DNA of 64,000 bases from Planctomycetota bacterium (GTDB lineage: Bacteria > Planctomycetota > B15-G4 > SIAN01). Position numbers and translations under genes: made by a program. Of the stretch, positions 21,005 to 56,394 are shown in pieces (the first letter of the stretch is position 1; each line of letters starts with the position of its first letter). The stretch lies in assembly GCA_031409275.1 (NCBI GenBank), contig JANNXA010000009.1, positions 96,001 to 160,000 of the forward strand, read 5' to 3'. Below the pieces are notes generated by a model, which saw only the letters and a list, made by a program, of their open reading frames with translations, had not been told where the DNA came from and did not search any database.

Positions 21005-22117
21005 ATGCGCTGTTGGCTCCTCGTCGCGGGAGCAGTCGTGCTGCTTGGAGGCGGACTCCGGGCACAGGACACCCTCGACAAGATTCAGAAAGAGACGAAC
21101 CTCGTCCTGGCGCGCGGCGCCAAGGCGGGTCCGGACCTCGCCGAGATCGAGCGCCTGCTCGGTCGCGCGCGGGACCTCTCGATCGACCTCAAGGCCGACG
21201 ACGAGGGGTTGCGGGCGAGCTTGCTGGTGCTCGACCTGTCGAGCTTCCTTGCGGAGGAGCGACAGAGCGAGCTCTTCACCGAGGTCTTCGACTCGCTGAT
21301 CGAGAACCACCTGCAGAGCGATGGGCTGGCGCAGGTCGTTCTGATGCGGCTGGCCAACCCTGCTCCCCACCTCGCGAAGGCGGCGGGCGAGTACTTCGAC
21401 TGGATCGCGCGCGATTCGAAGTCGAAGCCGGTGCAGGCGGCGTGCAAGTACACCCGTCTCACCAAGGACGCGGCAGCGGCCGGGAATGTCGCCGACGTGA
21501 AGAAGATGGTGGCGAAGCTCGAGGCGCTGAAGGCGGAGATCGGCAAGGAGCCGGCCGCGTTCGGTCAGACCTACGGGCAGATGCTCGACGAGTTGATCGA
21601 GTCGCTGAAGATCGTCGGGACGCCGGCCCCTGAAATCGAGGGCAAGGACCTCGACGGCGTCGCGTTCAAGCTCTCCGACTATCACGGCAAGGTCGTGCTG
21701 CTCGACTTCTGGGGCTATTGGTGAGGCCCTTGCCGGGGCATGTTCCCGCACGAGCGGTCGCTCGTGGCACGACTGAAGGATGATCCTTTCGCTCTGGTCG
21801 GAGTGAACAGCGACGAGAACTTCGAGGAGCTGAAGAAGAAGGAGTACCTCGAAGAGAAGATCACTTGGCGCAGCTTCCAGAACAGCGCGGCGACGCCGCC
21901 GATCTCGGAGCAGTGGAAGGTGAGTGGCTGGCCCACGCTCTACCTCGTCGACGCCGAAGGCAAGCTGCGCAAGAAGTGGATCGGCAGCCCGAGCGAAGCG
22001 GAGCTCGACGCGGCGATTGATGGCCTCGTGGCCGAAGCCACAGCGGGCAAAGGCAAGGCCGCTCCCGCCAAGCCCGTGAAGAAGGCCGATCCGAAGAAGA
22101 GCGGCGCTCCGAACTGA
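21005..22117 (+). CDS. Exported TlpA/redoxin-family thiol-disulfide oxidoreductase, probable selenoprotein (Sec at TGA 21722-21724, W-U-G-P-C)
   Basis: ORFs 20861-21724 and 21740-22117 are in the same frame and join as GKVVLLDFWGYW-TGA-GPCRGMFPHE...VGVNSD...GWPTLYLVD; signal peptide; hairpin after the TGA. Confidence 0.88.
21725..21759 (+). promoter_or_regulatory. Putative bacterial SECIS element
   Basis: GGCCCTTGC-CGGGG-CATGT-TCCCG-CACGAGCGGTC directly after the TGA; G-containing apical loop 15-19 nt downstream and a lower stem GGCC/GGTC. Confidence 0.55.
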
Positions 22118-51682: not shown

Positions 51683-53086
51683 CTATCGCTCCACCGCTCC
51701 ACTCGGCTCCGGCACCTCGCGGTCGGTGGCGATCGTCACCTCGAGCCGCGCCGGGTAGAGGCGGCCGCGGTCGTCGTAGCGTCGCGCGTGTTCCAGCAGC
51801 GTCGCCAGCGACAGCTTCGCGCTCACCTTGCGCTTCTCGCCGTTCACCACCAGTTCGATCGGCTTGGCGAGGTCGACCATCTTCGGATGGAGGCGCAGCG
51901 CCAGCTTGCGCACGTTCTTCGTGGTGAGCTCGATCTGGTTGCCCGGCTTCCACTCCGCCGCCGCCTCCTGCAGCAGGGCCGCGGCGGGCGTGCCCGCGGC
52001 AGCAGGAATCAGCTCGACCCAATGCACGTGGTTGAACTCGATCGGCCGTCCCTTGCGCCACGTGTGCTCGGGCCACGAAGGCTTGCGCGGCTCCGCCTCC
52101 TCGTAGCGCATCGAGCCGCCTCCGCGCGCGAAGACGCGTGGCCGATAGGGATCGCGCGGATGGGCAGCGAAGAAATCGAAGAGCTTCGGTACCTCGTCCT
52201 CGAAGATCTCGTGGCCGCCCGGCTTCTCGACGATGACCCAGTCGAAGCGGTGCTCCTCGAGCCATGCGCGCATCTTGCGGTTGTGGTCGGCGATGCCGTA
52301 CGGCTCGTCGCGGCCGTGAGTCGCATAGCCGGGGATGTTGAAGAGGTTCAGGATCGAGCGGTCGGCGACGTAGTCGTAGCCGCCGCTCATCGGGCCGACC
52401 GCGCCGAAACGGTCGGCGAAGTAGATCGCGGCGCGCCACGAGAAGTGGCCGCCCATCGAATGGCCGGTGACATAGACGCGATCGGGATCGATGTGCAGGT
52501 CGCGCGAGAGCTTCGACACCGCGCTCAGGAGCAGCGAGTTGCCGGTCCACATCCAACCGCGCCCGGTGGCCGGCGCCGCGAGGATCACGCCCTTCGCGGC
52601 GGCCGCGTCGGTGAAGCAGCGGATGTAGTCGCGCGCGGTCAACTCCGCCCGCTCCTGCGACATCTCCGCGTTGCCGCCGTGGCCGACGATGACGAGCGGC
52701 CACGCCTTGGCCGCGTCGTACTCCTTCGGCACGAAGAGGCTCATCGTGGTGTCGTAGTCCACATAGTCGTTGGCGAGCGGCACGCCATCGACCAGCGTGC
52801 CGGGCGCGATCGGCGGCGCGGGGTAGCTCGCGCGGCCGGCTCGCAGCAGCGCCTCGACGTCACCGATCTTCTGCTTGTTGCGCTCGAGCTTCGCGACGAG
52901 TTCGCGGGTGGCATTTGCCGCGCCGTCGAACCGAGTGTCGAAGTAGTGATCGAGCGCGACAGCCAGCTCATTCGCCGGCGCGTCGGCGACTTGCGCGCGT
53001 AGCTCGCCGATCGCCACGAGAGAGAGCGTCGCCATCCACGCGAGCCCGACCACCACCCGACCGATCCTCGTCTGCACCATTCGCAT
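51683..53086 (-). CDS. Exported alpha/beta hydrolase (esterase/peptidase-like)
   Basis: PLVIVGHGG, IDPDRVYVTGHSMGG, HGRDE and GGHE. Confidence 0.85.
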   Translation of the reverse strand: MRMVQTRIGRVVVGLAWMATLSLVAIGELRAQVADAPANELAVALDHYFDTRFDGAANATRELVAKLERNKQKIGDVEALLRAGRASYPAPPIAPGTLVDGVPLANDYVDYDTTMSLFVPKEYDAAKAWPLVIVGHGGNAEMSQERAELTARDYIRCFTDAAAAKGVILAAPATGRGWMWTGNSLLLSAVSKLSRDLHIDPDRVYVTGHSMGGHFSWRAAIYFADRFGAVGPMSGGYDYVADRSILNLFNIPGYATHGRDEPYGIADHNRKMRAWLEEHRFDWVIVEKPGGHEIFEDEVPKLFDFFAAHPRDPYRPRVFARGGGSMRYEEAEPRKPSWPEHTWRKGRPIEFNHVHWVELIPAAAGTPAAALLQEAAAEWKPGNQIELTTKNVRKLALRLHPKMVDLAKPIELVVNGEKRKVSAKLSLATLLEHARRYDDRGRLYPARLEVTIATDREVPEPSGAVER

Positions 53087-53280
53087 CGCCGCTCCCGACG
53101 TTTCGTCCCCAAGTCGCCATTCGACCGCCGTCTCGATCGCGAGTTCCGACGGCAATGGCGCGCGCTCTTCGCGCCGTGCGCGAGCGCACACGATTCCTTT
53201 CACTCCTGCTTCAACGACCATTTTGGCACGCCGTTGGATGAGTGTCCCTTGCCTGAACCGAATCCTCCTGAGAGACGTCG

Positions 53281-53874
53281 ATGTCCTTGCGCATGCCAGG
53301 TTGTGCCGGCCTCGCCCTGGTCGTGTTCGCGTCGCTGCCCGGCAGCGGACACGCCCAGGGTGAAGGCCCGTTCATCCAGCTCGAACCGCGCGCGATGGCG
53401 CGGGTCGTCTACTTCTCGCAGACCGGCCTCGCGGGTGAGTACGCGATCGAGTACGGCAAGCCGGAATGGAAGAGCGAGTACGACTCCCAGTTCGAGAAGC
53501 TCACTCGAGGTCAGCGCCTGCGACTCGGCCGCGATTGGTGGACGACGCTCAACACCTTCTGCGTGCTCAAGTTCGGCGAGAAGAGCGAGCTCAAGCCTGG
53601 CGAGTACTTCCTTGCGCTCGACTGCTCGGACAAGGGCGAGTGGAGCCTCGTCGCGCTCGACCCGGAGCCACTGCGCAAATCGAAGTTCGACGCCTTCGGC
53701 AGCTCGCAGACGAAGGGTGGCACGAAGATCCCGCTGCAGTACGCCACGACCAGCGACTCGGTGAAAGAGCTGACGATCCAGTTCGTCGCCGACCCGCAAT
53801 CGACCAAACAGCAGACGCTCGAGATCCGCTTCGGCAAGCATCGCCTCACCGCGCTGGTGAAGCCGACGATCTGA
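53281..53874 (+). CDS. Exported DUF2911-domain protein
   Basis: Signal peptide; AIEYGKPEW, RLGRDWWTT and LKPGEYFL. Confidence 0.78.
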   Translation: MSLRMPGCAGLALVVFASLPGSGHAQGEGPFIQLEPRAMARVVYFSQTGLAGEYAIEYGKPEWKSEYDSQFEKLTRGQRLRLGRDWWTTLNTFCVLKFGEKSELKPGEYFLALDCSDKGEWSLVALDPEPLRKSKFDAFGSSQTKGGTKIPLQYATTSDSVKELTIQFVADPQSTKQQTLEIRFGKHRLTALVKPTI

Positions 53875-53879
53875 GGTTG

Positions 53880-54057
53880 CCACTGCGCGGAGCCTTGGGT
53901 CGCTGAGAGACCACGCCGAGCCGAGGACCGAACTGGAACGAGCAAGGCGCTGAGACAAGCGCTTCGCTGAACTGAAACAAGCACTCCAGCAAACCCCGAG
54001 CGCTGGAGTGTCACCCCGGAGCGGGGCTGCGTGCCATCACGCGGCCCCGCTCTTTTT
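53880..54057 (+). ncRNA. Candidate structured small RNA / 3'-UTR RNA
   Basis: Several hairpins with recurring CTGA(G/A)A, ending in an intrinsic terminator; no known family recognised. Confidence 0.3.
54019..54057 (+). terminator. Rho-independent terminator
   Basis: 15-bp stem GAGCGGGGCTGCGTG-CCAT-CACGCGGCCCCGCTC followed by TTTTT. Confidence 0.85.
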
Positions 54058-54160
54058 CGTGAAGCGCCGTCTTGCTTGCGGCTCGCCGCCAACGACACGG
54101 CCCGCGACCGTCGCGGAGAGCGACGAGCGCGGGCCGGCCGAGCGATCGCGAACGGAGGGG

Positions 54161-54946
54161 TCAGCCCCCCTTCTCGCCCTGCTCCTGCTTCTTCAACGAC
54201 TGGAACTCCTTCAGGAGCTCCTTCGCCGTCTTCTTGCCGACGATCTTCTTCAGCGGCTTGGCCTCGGGCTTCTCCGCATTCGGATCGAGCACGAACAGCA
54301 CCGGCTGCTCCATCGACCCGACTGCGAAGCGCTTGGCCTCCTCGTTGTCGCGCGAGATCACGACGCGCGCCACCACGAACCTCGCCATCGCCGGGCTGAG
54401 CGTCTCATCGAAGAGCGCCTCCTCCAGCGCGGCCGAATCCTTGCCCTTGGTCGCGAAGAGGAAGAGCACGAGTTTGTCGTCCTTCTTCGCCTCGGCCGCC
54501 GCCGCCTCGAAGGTCGCGTGGAAGCTCTTCGTGTTCGCCTTGGCGATCTTCTCGATCTGCGCCTTCACGCTGGCCGAGTCGCGCCCGCCGAGCGGCTCGA
54601 TCACCTCGCCCTTGCTGTCGGTGAAGATCACCGTCGGGTAGCCGCGCACGCCGTACTTCTTCGACAGGTCGCTGTTCTTCTTGCCCCAGTCGCAGTCGAC
54701 GAAGACGTTGACGATCGACTTGCTGGCCTCGACCACCGCCTCATCGCTGAACGCACCTGCGCTCAGCTGCTTGCACGGGCCTCAGCCAAGGCTCGTGAAG
54801 AACATCATCATCGGCTTGCCCGACGACTTGGCCGCCTTCATGGCCGCCGCTGGTTCGTGGTTCCACGGGATCTTGCCGCCGTCTTGCGCGAGCGCTTCGC
54901 TCGCGAAGAGCGCGGTGGCGGCCACCGCAAGCAACGTCTTCATCAT
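54161..54946 (-). CDS. Exported thioredoxin-fold protein (two Trx-like domains), probable selenoprotein (Sec at TGA 54784-54782, G-U-G-P-C)
   Basis: ORFs 54782-55102 and 54161-54736 are in frame: MKTLL...GKPMMMFFTSLG-TGA-GPCKQL...VDCD...YGVRGYPTVIF; strong hairpin after the TGA. Confidence 0.9.
54746..54767 (-). promoter_or_regulatory. Putative bacterial SECIS element
   Basis: GCTGAGCGC-AGGT-GCGTTCAGC, a 9-bp stem with an AGGU loop, starting after a 14-nt spacer from the UGA. Confidence 0.75.
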
Positions 54947-55056
54947 TTGATTCCACTCCAGTTTCCGGGGACGCACCTCGGCTCCTGCCGAGCAGGTGCC
55001 ACGCGCGAACGGGCCACAGGATAGGCAAGCGAGCTCGCCGCTACGATTCGTCGCCG

Positions 55057-56394
55057 ATGGACCTCTTCGCCAAGTCGCCGGCCGAGCTTGCCCGCAGCGC
55101 ACCCCTTTCCGACCGCATGCGCCCCCGTTCGCTGGCGGAAGTGGTGGGCCAGGAAGAGGTGATCGGCCCCGGTCGGCCGCTGCGCCGCATCCTCGACGCG
55201 CGCGAACGGCCCCCCTCGATGGTCTTCTGGGGACCGCCCGGGACCGGCAAGACCACGCTCGCGCGCCTGGTGGCCAAGGACGCCGACCTCCCGTTCCTGC
55301 CGTTCAGCGCCGTGACCAGCGGGATCAAGGAGGTTCGTGAATCGATCGAGAAGGCGCGCGCGCGCCGCCGTGAGGACGGCAAGCCCGCGCTCGTCTTCGT
55401 CGACGAGATCCACCGCTTCAACCGCGCGCAGCAGGACGCCTTCCTGCCGCACGTCGAGGACGGGACGATCATCCTGGTCGGCGCCACCACCGAGAATCCG
55501 AGCTTCGAGGTGAACGCCGCGCTCCTCTCGCGCTGCCGCGTCTTCGTGCTGAAGGGGCTGTCCGACACGCAGGTGGTGGAACTGCTGCAACGGGCGCTGA
55601 CCGACGTCGAACGCGGACTCGGCGCTGAAGCGATCGACCTCGAAGAGCAGGCGCTCGAGCGGCTGGCCGGCCTCGCCAACGGCGACGCGCGCCAGGCGCT
55701 GAACCTGCTCGAGCTGTCGGTGCGCGCGACGCCGCTCGAAGAGGGACGTCGACGCGTCACGTTCGCCACGGTGCGCGACGTCACGCAGCGGCGCAACAGC
55801 AACTACGACGCGAGCGGCGACCAGCACTACGACGTCGCCTCCGCGCTGATCAAGTCGTTGCGCGGCAGCGATCCCGACGCGGCGATCTACTGGCTGGCGC
55901 GAATGCTGGAGAACGGCGAGGACCCGCTCTTCGTCGCGCGCCGCCTCGTCGTCTTCGCCAGCGAAGACGTCGGCAACGCCGATCCCCGCGGCCTCATGGT
56001 CGCCGTCGCTGCGATGCAGGCGACCCACTTCGTCGGCATGCCCGAGGCGCACTACGCGCTGGCACAGGCGACCGCCTACCTCGCGACCACGCCCAAGAGC
56101 AACGCGGCCGGCGCCGCCTACGCGAAGGCGGCGCACGACGTCGAAGCAACCCGCAACGACCCCGTCCCGCTCCATCTGCGCAACGCCGCGACCGGCCTGA
56201 TGCGCGGGCTGGGCTACGGCAAGGGCTACCAGTACGCGCACGATCAGCAGGACGCGATCGTCACCCACGCGCATCTGCCCGAAGCGCTGGCCGATCGGCG
56301 CTACTACGAGCCCAAGGAGGTCGGCCACGAAGCCGCCATCCGCCGCTGGCTCGCCGAACGCGAAGCGAAGCGGGCCGGGCGCGGCGGCAGCTGA
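55057..56394 (+). CDS. rarA: Replication-associated recombination protein A (RarA/MgsA)
   Basis: APLSDRMRP, GPPGTGKTT, DEIHRF, GATTENP, SALIKSLRGSDPDA, SEDVGNADP and VPLHLRNA. Confidence 0.97.
   Translation: MDLFAKSPAELARSAPLSDRMRPRSLAEVVGQEEVIGPGRPLRRILDARERPPSMVFWGPPGTGKTTLARLVAKDADLPFLPFSAVTSGIKEVRESIEKARARRREDGKPALVFVDEIHRFNRAQQDAFLPHVEDGTIILVGATTENPSFEVNAALLSRCRVFVLKGLSDTQVVELLQRALTDVERGLGAEAIDLEEQALERLAGLANGDARQALNLLELSVRATPLEEGRRRVTFATVRDVTQRRNSNYDASGDQHYDVASALIKSLRGSDPDAAIYWLARMLENGEDPLFVARRLVVFASEDVGNADPRGLMVAVAAMQATHFVGMPEAHYALAQATAYLATTPKSNAAGAAYAKAAHDVEATRNDPVPLHLRNAATGLMRGLGYGKGYQYAHDQQDAIVTHAHLPEALADRRYYEPKEVGHEAAIRRWLAEREAKRAGRGGS

Follow-up and report, generated by a model that had tools for sequence, protein, structure and literature searches.

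Two open reading frames called at one locus of a planctomycete contig raised the question of whether the TGA between them ends a gene or lies inside one. The locus falls in a window of 64,000 nucleotides, the whole stretch of contig JANNXA010000009.1 (assembly GCA_031409275.1, positions 96,001 to 160,000) that was analysed. Standard ORF calling returned 54782..55102, which ends at the TGA, and 54161..54736, and gene callers report the downstream ORF as a 191-aa piece that begins at an internal GTG. The original prediction had joined the two ORFs into one frame through the TGA at 54784-54782 and taken that TGA for a selenocysteine (Sec) codon at the first Cys position of a CxxC motif. Translation of the minus strand from 54946 to 54161 bore out this join. 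Reading through the TGA gave 261 residues with no other internal stops, the context at codon 55 was GKPMMMFFTSLG-[TGA]-GPCKQL, and the resulting U-G-P-C begins in a column that aligns with Cys in homologs. On the evidence of the codon, a hairpin that follows it and the decoding machinery of the genome, we infer that the in-frame UGA is very probably read as Sec. Our full reading, to which we give a probability of about 0.6, is that this is one gene for an exported selenoprotein, built of a catalytic and a Cys-free thioredoxin domain, that would reduce or reshuffle disulfides in the cell envelope.

Table 1 Features of the split gene and its surroundings, in window coordinates.
Feature	Position	Strand	Basis
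Whole gene, 261 codons + stop, with one in-frame TGA as predicted Sec	54161..54946	-	Translated sequence
Putative ribosome-binding site, GGAG	54956..54959	-	Sequence; 9 nt ahead of the ATG at 54946
Predicted Sec-pathway signal peptide, residues 1-20, with A-L-A end before conserved QDGGK	54887..54946	-	Sequence
Thioredoxin domain 1, residues 25-139, predicted catalytic, DsbD-gamma/DsbH/Thioredoxin_7-like	54530..54874	-	Pfam and fold
In-frame TGA, codon 55, predicted Sec, first position of U-G-P-C	54782..54784	-	TGA in 53/58 family copies
Cys58, predicted resolving Cys	54773..54775	-	Present in all 12 close orthologs
SECIS-like hairpin, 9-bp stem, AGGU loop at 54758-54755, overlapping codons 60-67	54746..54767	-	Folding and conservation
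Cys85 in V-D-C-D-W-G, third conserved Cys	54692..54694	-	At least 90% of 84 aligned proteins
Pro104 of G-Y-P-T, thioredoxin cis-Pro position by alignment	54635..54637	-	Invariant in 84 rows
Thioredoxin-fold domain 2, residues 140-252, Cys-less	54191..54529	-	AlphaFold and fold match
True stop codon, TGA	54161..54163	-	Translated sequence
Two terminator-like hairpins between the gene and the convergent gene 53281-53874	53970..54053	.	Sequence

The features of the gene are collected in Table 1. Translation might also start at a second ATG, at 54943, and the other close orthologs (n = 11) end in TGA, TAA or TAG 200-225 codons past the Sec codon. In one study, contigs of the three runs X1, X2 and X4 extend across the TGA with zero differences and show TGA rather than TGC or TGT at the site, and the TGA is thus no assembly error; this DNA may itself derive from X1 and X2. 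The RNA run X7 contained related pieces, none spanning the TGA. Without selenium the UGA would be a stop and would leave a 54-residue stub.

The spacer, stem and loop described in the original prediction were all recovered where it had placed them. The stem follows the UGA after 14 nt. The bSECIS criteria listed in the legend to Fig. 2A of PMC13188914 are a loop of 3-9 nt with G at loop position 1-2, a stem of 4-16 bp, a distance of 16-37 nt from the UGA and an energy of -7.5 kcal/mol or lower. By our own script the hairpin here has a 4-nt loop that opens with A-G and starts 23 nt from the UGA, a 9-bp stem and -14.8 kcal/mol, so that it agrees with every constraint given in that legend for SelB-dependent recoding. 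One side clade of the family has its loop at 17 nt instead. Taken alone, such a hairpin is only moderately rare in DNA of 70% GC and is weak evidence. The loose bSECIS test was passed by 336 of the 1846 ordinary TGA stops of long ORFs and a strict version (-14 kcal/mol or lower, at least 9 bp) by 57, and the corresponding counts among 2000 sampled Cys codons were 288 and 14. The folding z-score varied with the slice taken (-2.80 for 55 nt, -1.27 for 45 nt and -0.41 for 85 nt), and an Rfam scan of 53900-55300 found nothing over the gathering score and nothing on the hairpin.

What places the hairpin above chance is its conservation across relatives. The 20-nt core is identical in 13 of 13 close copies. 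An alignment of 12 orthologs that share 50-90% identity pairwise shows no variation in six of the seven codons 61-67. Two of the invariant codons, GCA and GGT, are rare in this genome (5% of Ala and 10% of Gly codons, respectively), and all 12 sequences keep them; elsewhere in the gene a single codon is kept in only 5 of the 33 invariant 4- or 6-fold columns. The seven-codon window over the hairpin had the lowest synonymous divergence of 229 windows (0.033 vs a median of 0.359). The peptide encoded there is partly under protein constraint, since Cys and Ser forms hold a similar one. The Cys copy L169 keeps the LDAGAFS peptide in common codons and without the hairpin; the hairpin is present in L166, a Sec paralog from the genome of L169.

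Contiguous stems of -7.5 kcal/mol or lower were found in 31 of the 37 Sec copies. This register is not used by ten copies, which come from two other families; eight of the ten pass by virtue of another hairpin, with its loop beginning at 17 nt. Copies L076-L079, L081, L082, L084 and L090 form one clade with a distinct hairpin, in which a GGC loop lies 17 nt past the UGA vs 23-25 nt elsewhere, 6 nt further upstream than the main register. Formal covariation support for the hairpin is modest. Covariation of its pairs was not significant on 37 rows or on 27 rows, and the fixed-register test on 37 rows failed because ten of them use the shifted hairpin. On 43 rows, with the ten shifted-hairpin rows left out, the score was beaten by 0 of 500 shuffles, a test that kinship alone can pass, and the number of pairs changed on both sides was matched in 111 of 500 shuffles and was not significant.

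A genome that decodes UGA as Sec should carry the machinery for it, and all four components named in the original prediction scored over their curated cut-offs in the examined genome (5.59 Mb, 92.9% complete): selA (484 bits, cut-off 268), selB (334, cut-off 242), selD (338.5, cut-off 125) and tRNA-Sec (76, cut-off 47). The selD gene has an in-frame TGA and hairpin of its own. TGA is otherwise the main stop, terminating 1846 of 2220 long ORFs genome-wide, and recoding is therefore site-specific, as had been argued from the TGA triplets that are indeed present at window positions 1087, 4254 and 8121. Fifty-nine tRNAs were found, and the only one with a UCA anticodon was tRNA-Sec. Across the 22 other genomes that carry the family, selA was detected in 21 and tRNA-Sec in 19, with one or the other in all; this co-occurrence is weak evidence, as selA is widespread (289 of 401 genomes across the phylum) and kin are not independent.

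Full-length orthologs with 71-78% identity and one internal TGA each occurred in 4 of 4 congeners, and seven metagenome loci held further full-length, one-TGA orthologs. Within the order, profile searches recovered the family from 5 of 42 genomes, every one belonging to this genus. Across the phylum, with scoring limited to 5 candidates per genome, at least 21 of 401 genomes carried it, and a search with a Cys homolog detected it in 17 of 20 genomes from another order. The active-site column was TGA in 13/13 close copies, 24/25 phylum copies and 16/20 further copies, which totals 53 of the 58 copies with DNA read and reaches down to ~30% identity. The five non-TGA copies had Cys, Ala (twice), Leu and Thr/Gly. 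This count leaves out L087 (27% identity, TGA, without the xxC), neighbours of the C-U type at L075 and L148, L095 (a repeat of L075), two loci that repeat congener matches, and loci from genomes already counted.

Both kinds of homolog that the original prediction had envisaged at the Sec column were found, copies with a conserved TGA and hairpin and proteins with Cys (P0042, P0047, P0049, P0050, P0057 and P0064). By our own rank cut, 87 of 96 protein database matches belonged to the family. Its expectation that pipelines would split the gene also held, as 72 of the 87 begin past the Sec column; contig ends may contribute to this number, and one of the 72 is this gene's own fragment. Fourteen others are full-length with a C-terminal extension and have Cys (6), Ser (7) or Asn (1) at the column, and the last, P0056, has Trp there in a protein record alone. 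There was no full-length two-domain Cys form among the 87 family proteins, and the genome yielded no Cys backup copy of the family. Relatives appear in public records as 'hypothetical proteins' of 186-192 aa that lack the signal peptide and active site.

Several variants of the family were seen alongside these copies. A linker rich in Pro and a short C-terminal domain, helical by eye, mark a subfamily of ~340 aa (P0042, P0047-P0050, P0057, L070 and L143), which holds Sec, Cys, Ser and Asn versions. One-domain Sec versions with 82-88 residues past the TGA were found at L057, L081, L146, L158 and L160, some in tandem with a two-domain copy. At L075/L106 (G162:C48) and L148 (G427:C96) the family gene adjoins a distant thioredoxin_7 paralog with an exported N-terminus, in which G-G-G-C-U (TGC TGA) replaces UxxC and is followed by a hairpin-like stretch. 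The only longer fused forms among 7989 scored candidates were six eukaryotic multi-thioredoxin proteins, which is weak evidence of absence.

Selection has acted on both sides of the TGA. Codon models gave dN/dS of 0.06-0.18 upstream, 0.12-0.22 in domain 1 past the hairpin and 0.07-0.14 in domain 2, and the control values for the neighbours rarA, glnA and an OsmC-like gene in four congeners were 0.03-0.11. The original prediction had named a ratio near 1 past the TGA as evidence against it, and the range measured there was 0.07-0.22. These low values come from codon models only; the uncorrected pN/pS was ~0.65, probably because GC bias caps pS.

The 58-row tree resolved the 14 extended Cys/Ser/Asn proteins and one Sec member as a single clade (100/99) nested in three further supported Sec-rich branches (97/87, 99/93 and 98/91). 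A tree constrained to separate the 37 Sec rows from the outgroups and from every Cys/Ser/Asn row was rejected (p-AU 0.003); the group to be constrained had been chosen once the tree was known. The root has weak support (61/44), and the Cys rows come from a database able to hold read-through-free forms only. On the simplest reading Sec would be old in the family and the extended clade would have lost it; Sec may instead have been gained several times.

These data bear on whether the TGA could be anything other than a Sec codon. The separate 191-aa piece given by the gene callers is what a nonsense pseudogene, a pair of genes or a sequencing error might produce, but the TGA is shared across the 53 copies, purifying selection flanks it, the run contigs agree on it, and the break falls inside a thioredoxin domain, between the first strand and the active-site helix, where it would cut that domain in two. 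We consider this reading extremely improbable and, in practice, already refuted by conservation. Reassignment of UGA to Trp, or read-through without a SECIS, is just as improbable. The Trp in P0056 would fit the former, but TGA ends most long ORFs of the genome and this gene itself, the only tRNA able to pair with it by a UCA anticodon is tRNA-Sec, and a Trp reading would turn a Cys-aligned column into W-G-P-C, without an attacking residue. Selenocysteine is the reading carried forward below.

Export had also been predicted, and the N-terminus has a basic N-region, a hydrophobic core and an A-x-A cleavage site, the sequence features of Sec-pathway export. Residues 1-20 were modelled with low confidence (pLDDT about 50). 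By our own hydropathy rule, a basic N-region with a hydrophobic stretch was present in 32 of 36 scored family copies and no Tat motif was flagged. From these features the protein is very probably exported through the Sec translocon and cleaved after Ala20.

Domain 1 scored over cut-off for PF13899 (51.4 bits), PF13098 (48, cut-off 27) and PF00085 (40.4). Its best fold match was 1vrs_D (Z 14.8, rmsd 2.1, 109 aligned), followed by a Bacteroides exported domain (Z 14.7) and DsbH (Z 13.8). The GYPT taken in the original prediction for the thioredoxin cis-Pro motif lies at residues 102-105 and aligns with GYPT of human ERp46 and ERp57 domains and with YPT of Bacteroides 2kuc. The domain thus has the fold, the (U/C)xxC at the start of helix 2 and, by alignment, the cis-Pro loop of a thioredoxin-fold oxidoreductase. 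The residue before the UxxC is Gly; Trp is the residue that usually precedes CxxC. The second, Cys-less thioredoxin-like domain was likewise as predicted, with no Cys past residue 85 and a thioredoxin fold by AlphaFold. Modelled alone it reached a pLDDT of 94.1 and again matched 1vrs_D best (Z 12.4, rmsd 2.3, 106 aligned). The two domains aligned to each other with 98% probability (hhalign, E about 1e-13), and domain 2 is likely an internal duplicate of domain 1. The whole-chain AlphaFold model has two thioredoxin domains with a mean pLDDT of 89.7 and a pTM of 0.76.

The closest single-domain folds, DsbD gamma (1vrs) and DsbH (NF043050, 2ju5), are single-domain Cys proteins, and the DsbH model scored 30.8 vs a cut-off of 190. 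The top whole-chain Foldseek matches were eukaryotic a-b modules, namely yeast Mpd1p (3ed3), QSOX1 Trx1-Trx2 (3q6o) and protein disulfide isomerase (PDI, 4el1), with E about 2e-9. Our protein shares with these modules a signal peptide and a G-Y-P-T catalytic domain followed by a redox-inactive thioredoxin domain. It differs from them in its low identity (17-20%), in a TM of about 0.35, which indicates a different domain orientation, and in having U-G-P-C where they have C-G-H-C. C-G-H-C is absent from it and the PDI models fell short of their cut-offs (TIGR01130, 36.9 vs 344; TIGR01126, 37.2 vs 107). The PDI-like layout is likely convergent, because domain 2 resembles a duplicate of the protein's own domain 1.

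What the protein does in the envelope depends on its redox partners. The genome encodes a complete DsbD, with two alpha-like domains, a membrane domain and a gamma domain whose motif is F-T-U-I-N-C. A TGA stands at the first Cys of that gamma domain (G000:C51, 106506 (-); L116:3606-796) and is followed by a small hairpin of -6.6 kcal/mol. The gamma-domain TGA is present in all 4 congeners and in G063, and several other carriers have Cys at this position. DsbD was present in 22 of 22 carriers, a count made on carriers alone. DsbB, VKOR and DsbA-like proteins (PF13462) had no match in the genome, which is 92.9% complete, so that DsbA and DsbB may lie in the missing part. According to PMC5403849, DsbD, ScsB or CcdA keep the isomerases and reductases of the envelope in the reduced state, and oxidases are served by DsbB or VKOR homologs. 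A full DsbD together with the lack of a DsbB, VKOR or PF13462 match favours a reductive role.

In the mechanism we propose, SelB and Sec-tRNA would bind the AGGU hairpin downstream of the UGA and Sec would be inserted at codon 55, and the signal peptide would direct the product to the Sec translocon before being cut off after Ala20. As suggested by the fold, the U-G-P-C and the G-Y-P-T, the selenolate of Sec55 would attack a disulfide or an oxidised Cys of an envelope protein, and Cys58 would resolve the mixed bond to yield a selenenylsulfide. DsbD would then re-reduce the selenoprotein, a pairing that we favour by a small measure. The Cys-less domain 2 would likely bind a substrate or partner by analogy with PDI, whose b domain does so. 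An extended version, in which the protein is a selenium counterpart of PDI with a Sec-first, duplicated domain pair, fed by the Sec-containing DsbD through a Se-to-Se relay in an envelope without DsbA, DsbB or VKOR, is tentative, and we regard it as rather unlikely.

A selenoprotein at this site could also serve other ends. It might scavenge peroxide or sulfenic acids, or form disulfides, rather than carry out DsbD-fed reduction or isomerisation. Such roles would suit the loss of Cys58 from two distant Sec copies, L073 (U-P-P-Y) and L148 (U-P-P-S), and the strong conservation of Cys85, and since DsbA-like proteins, DsbB and VKOR went unmatched, another protein must make disulfides in this envelope if any are made. 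The G-P dipeptide, by contrast, is of the thioredoxin type, the nearest folds (DsbD gamma and DsbH) are extracytoplasmic thioredoxin-like proteins of reductive pathways, and an oxidase needs a re-oxidising partner, of which none was found in the genome. We judge scavenging or oxidation unlikely, at perhaps a third of the weight of our preferred reading. Somewhat less likely again is a protein that mainly binds or chaperones through its two-domain scaffold, with Sec as a redox switch or transient tether. The Cys-less domain is more constrained than the catalytic one, Ser or Asn occupies the Sec column in 8 of the 14 full-length extended relatives, and Ala, Leu or Thr/Gly does so in 4 genomic copies, all of which would agree with a binding role. 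Against it, Sec and a costly hairpin are kept in 53 of 58 copies, and the non-redox forms are mostly paralogs or members of one derived clade. DsbD-fed reduction or reshuffling of envelope disulfides remains our preferred function.

UxxC thioredoxin-like selenoproteins are a long-catalogued kind. Table 1 of PMC13188914, with 119 families, lists a 'thiol:disulfide interchange protein' selenoprotein (PF13098, UxxC, representative WP_011366075.1), and 'Trx-like 2' (cd02953) in Table 2 of PMC2398784 is of that kind. The protein described here resembles it in PF13098 (48 vs 27 bits), the UxxC, the in-gene SECIS and the DsbD-gamma-like domain 1, and is set apart, by description, by its second, Cys-less thioredoxin domain and its signal peptide. 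Cys homologs of that kind outnumbered Sec forms in the GOS set by 2,098 to 22, according to the portion of PMC2398784 covered, whereas Sec forms dominate in this family. Table 1 of PMC13188914 has no entry named for a tandem pair of catalytic and Cys-less thioredoxin domains, and the words 'signal peptide', 'periplasm' and 'Planctomycet' are absent from the covered parts of that paper. Exported bacterial selenoproteins are already known, however, as the same table includes substrate-binding proteins and multiheme cytochromes.

TsoB (NF045694), Trx7/PDZ (NF041199), VPGUxxT type 2 (NF041383) and PDO_seleno_TRX (TIGR02187) share a thioredoxin_7-type domain with our protein, which scored below their cut-offs (59.7 vs 805, 23.9 vs 300, 34.9 vs 275 and 13.6 vs 185, respectively). 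Except for TIGR02187 their motifs differ (UxxxxU, CxxU, VPGU), and our protein has no rhodanese or PDZ part. No NCBIfam model reached its cut-off, and the best E among the 84 aligned members was no better than 1.4e-16. BSepDB covers 64,762 genomes searched with known families, by the part of PMC13326102 covered, and may hold this gene under a broad thioredoxin-like name. We found no description of this family in the covered portions of the literature on bacterial selenoproteins, including PMC9312934.

The family is apparently uncatalogued and unnamed, a planctomycete family of a familiar selenoprotein type, and it shows neither a new recoding mechanism nor a new fold. It adds a well-supported selenoprotein family whose members are beheaded by gene callers. 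Sec predominates in it and Cys is exceptional, whereas the opposite holds for the majority of thioredoxin-like selenoproteins that have been catalogued. Sec, Cys and Ser versions that occur naturally side by side offer a direct test of what selenium contributes in the envelope, and a coding-sequence hairpin that is frozen in most copies, relocated in one clade and decayed in a Cys copy provides a SelB-SECIS case outside E. coli.

Neighbouring genes gave little further indication of function. Conserved neighbours were not found beyond genus or family level across 20 fetched regions, three metagenome loci and the window; the gene caller returned nothing for two of the regions (L102 and L115). 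The gene stands alone, so its neighbourhood provides no tie to DsbD or to a substrate. The terminator-like hairpins downstream comprise one on the plus strand at 54018-54053 with a T run and one on the minus strand at 54010-53982 followed by a T-rich run, the latter judged by eye, and a promoter scan at the locus found no sigma-70-like promoter. The proteins encoded at window positions 51683-53221 (-) and 53281-53874 (+) had no Pfam match at the thresholds used and lie beside the gene in some congeners.

The genome, G000 in our numbering, appears to have a large selenoproteome, judging by its in-frame TGA candidates. Those with coding signal on both sides are C37:62433, C45:88346, C34:159256, C51:406320 and C33:63551, together with C28:70576, C34:79169, C50:48182, C43:53376, C23:26950, C23:25248, C43:63697, C27:33213 and C16:170423. 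By motifs named by eye, these 14 include MsrA-like, peroxiredoxin-like, AhpD-like, ArsC-like and several thioredoxin-like frames. Four TlpA-like paralogs have W-U-G-P-C and an identical hairpin whose loop starts 31 nt past the TGA; their TGAs are at window position 21722 (+), which is G000:C9:117722, and at C7:86341, C7:112758 and C47:5887. In-frame TGAs were also seen in FG-GAP-like repeat frames at G000:C14:295797 (-), C34:64177 (-), C3:2400 (-) and C30:17689 (+), and the motifs of these four frames are D-L-U-S-F-W-W, D-T-U-S-T-Y-W and two U-C dyads.
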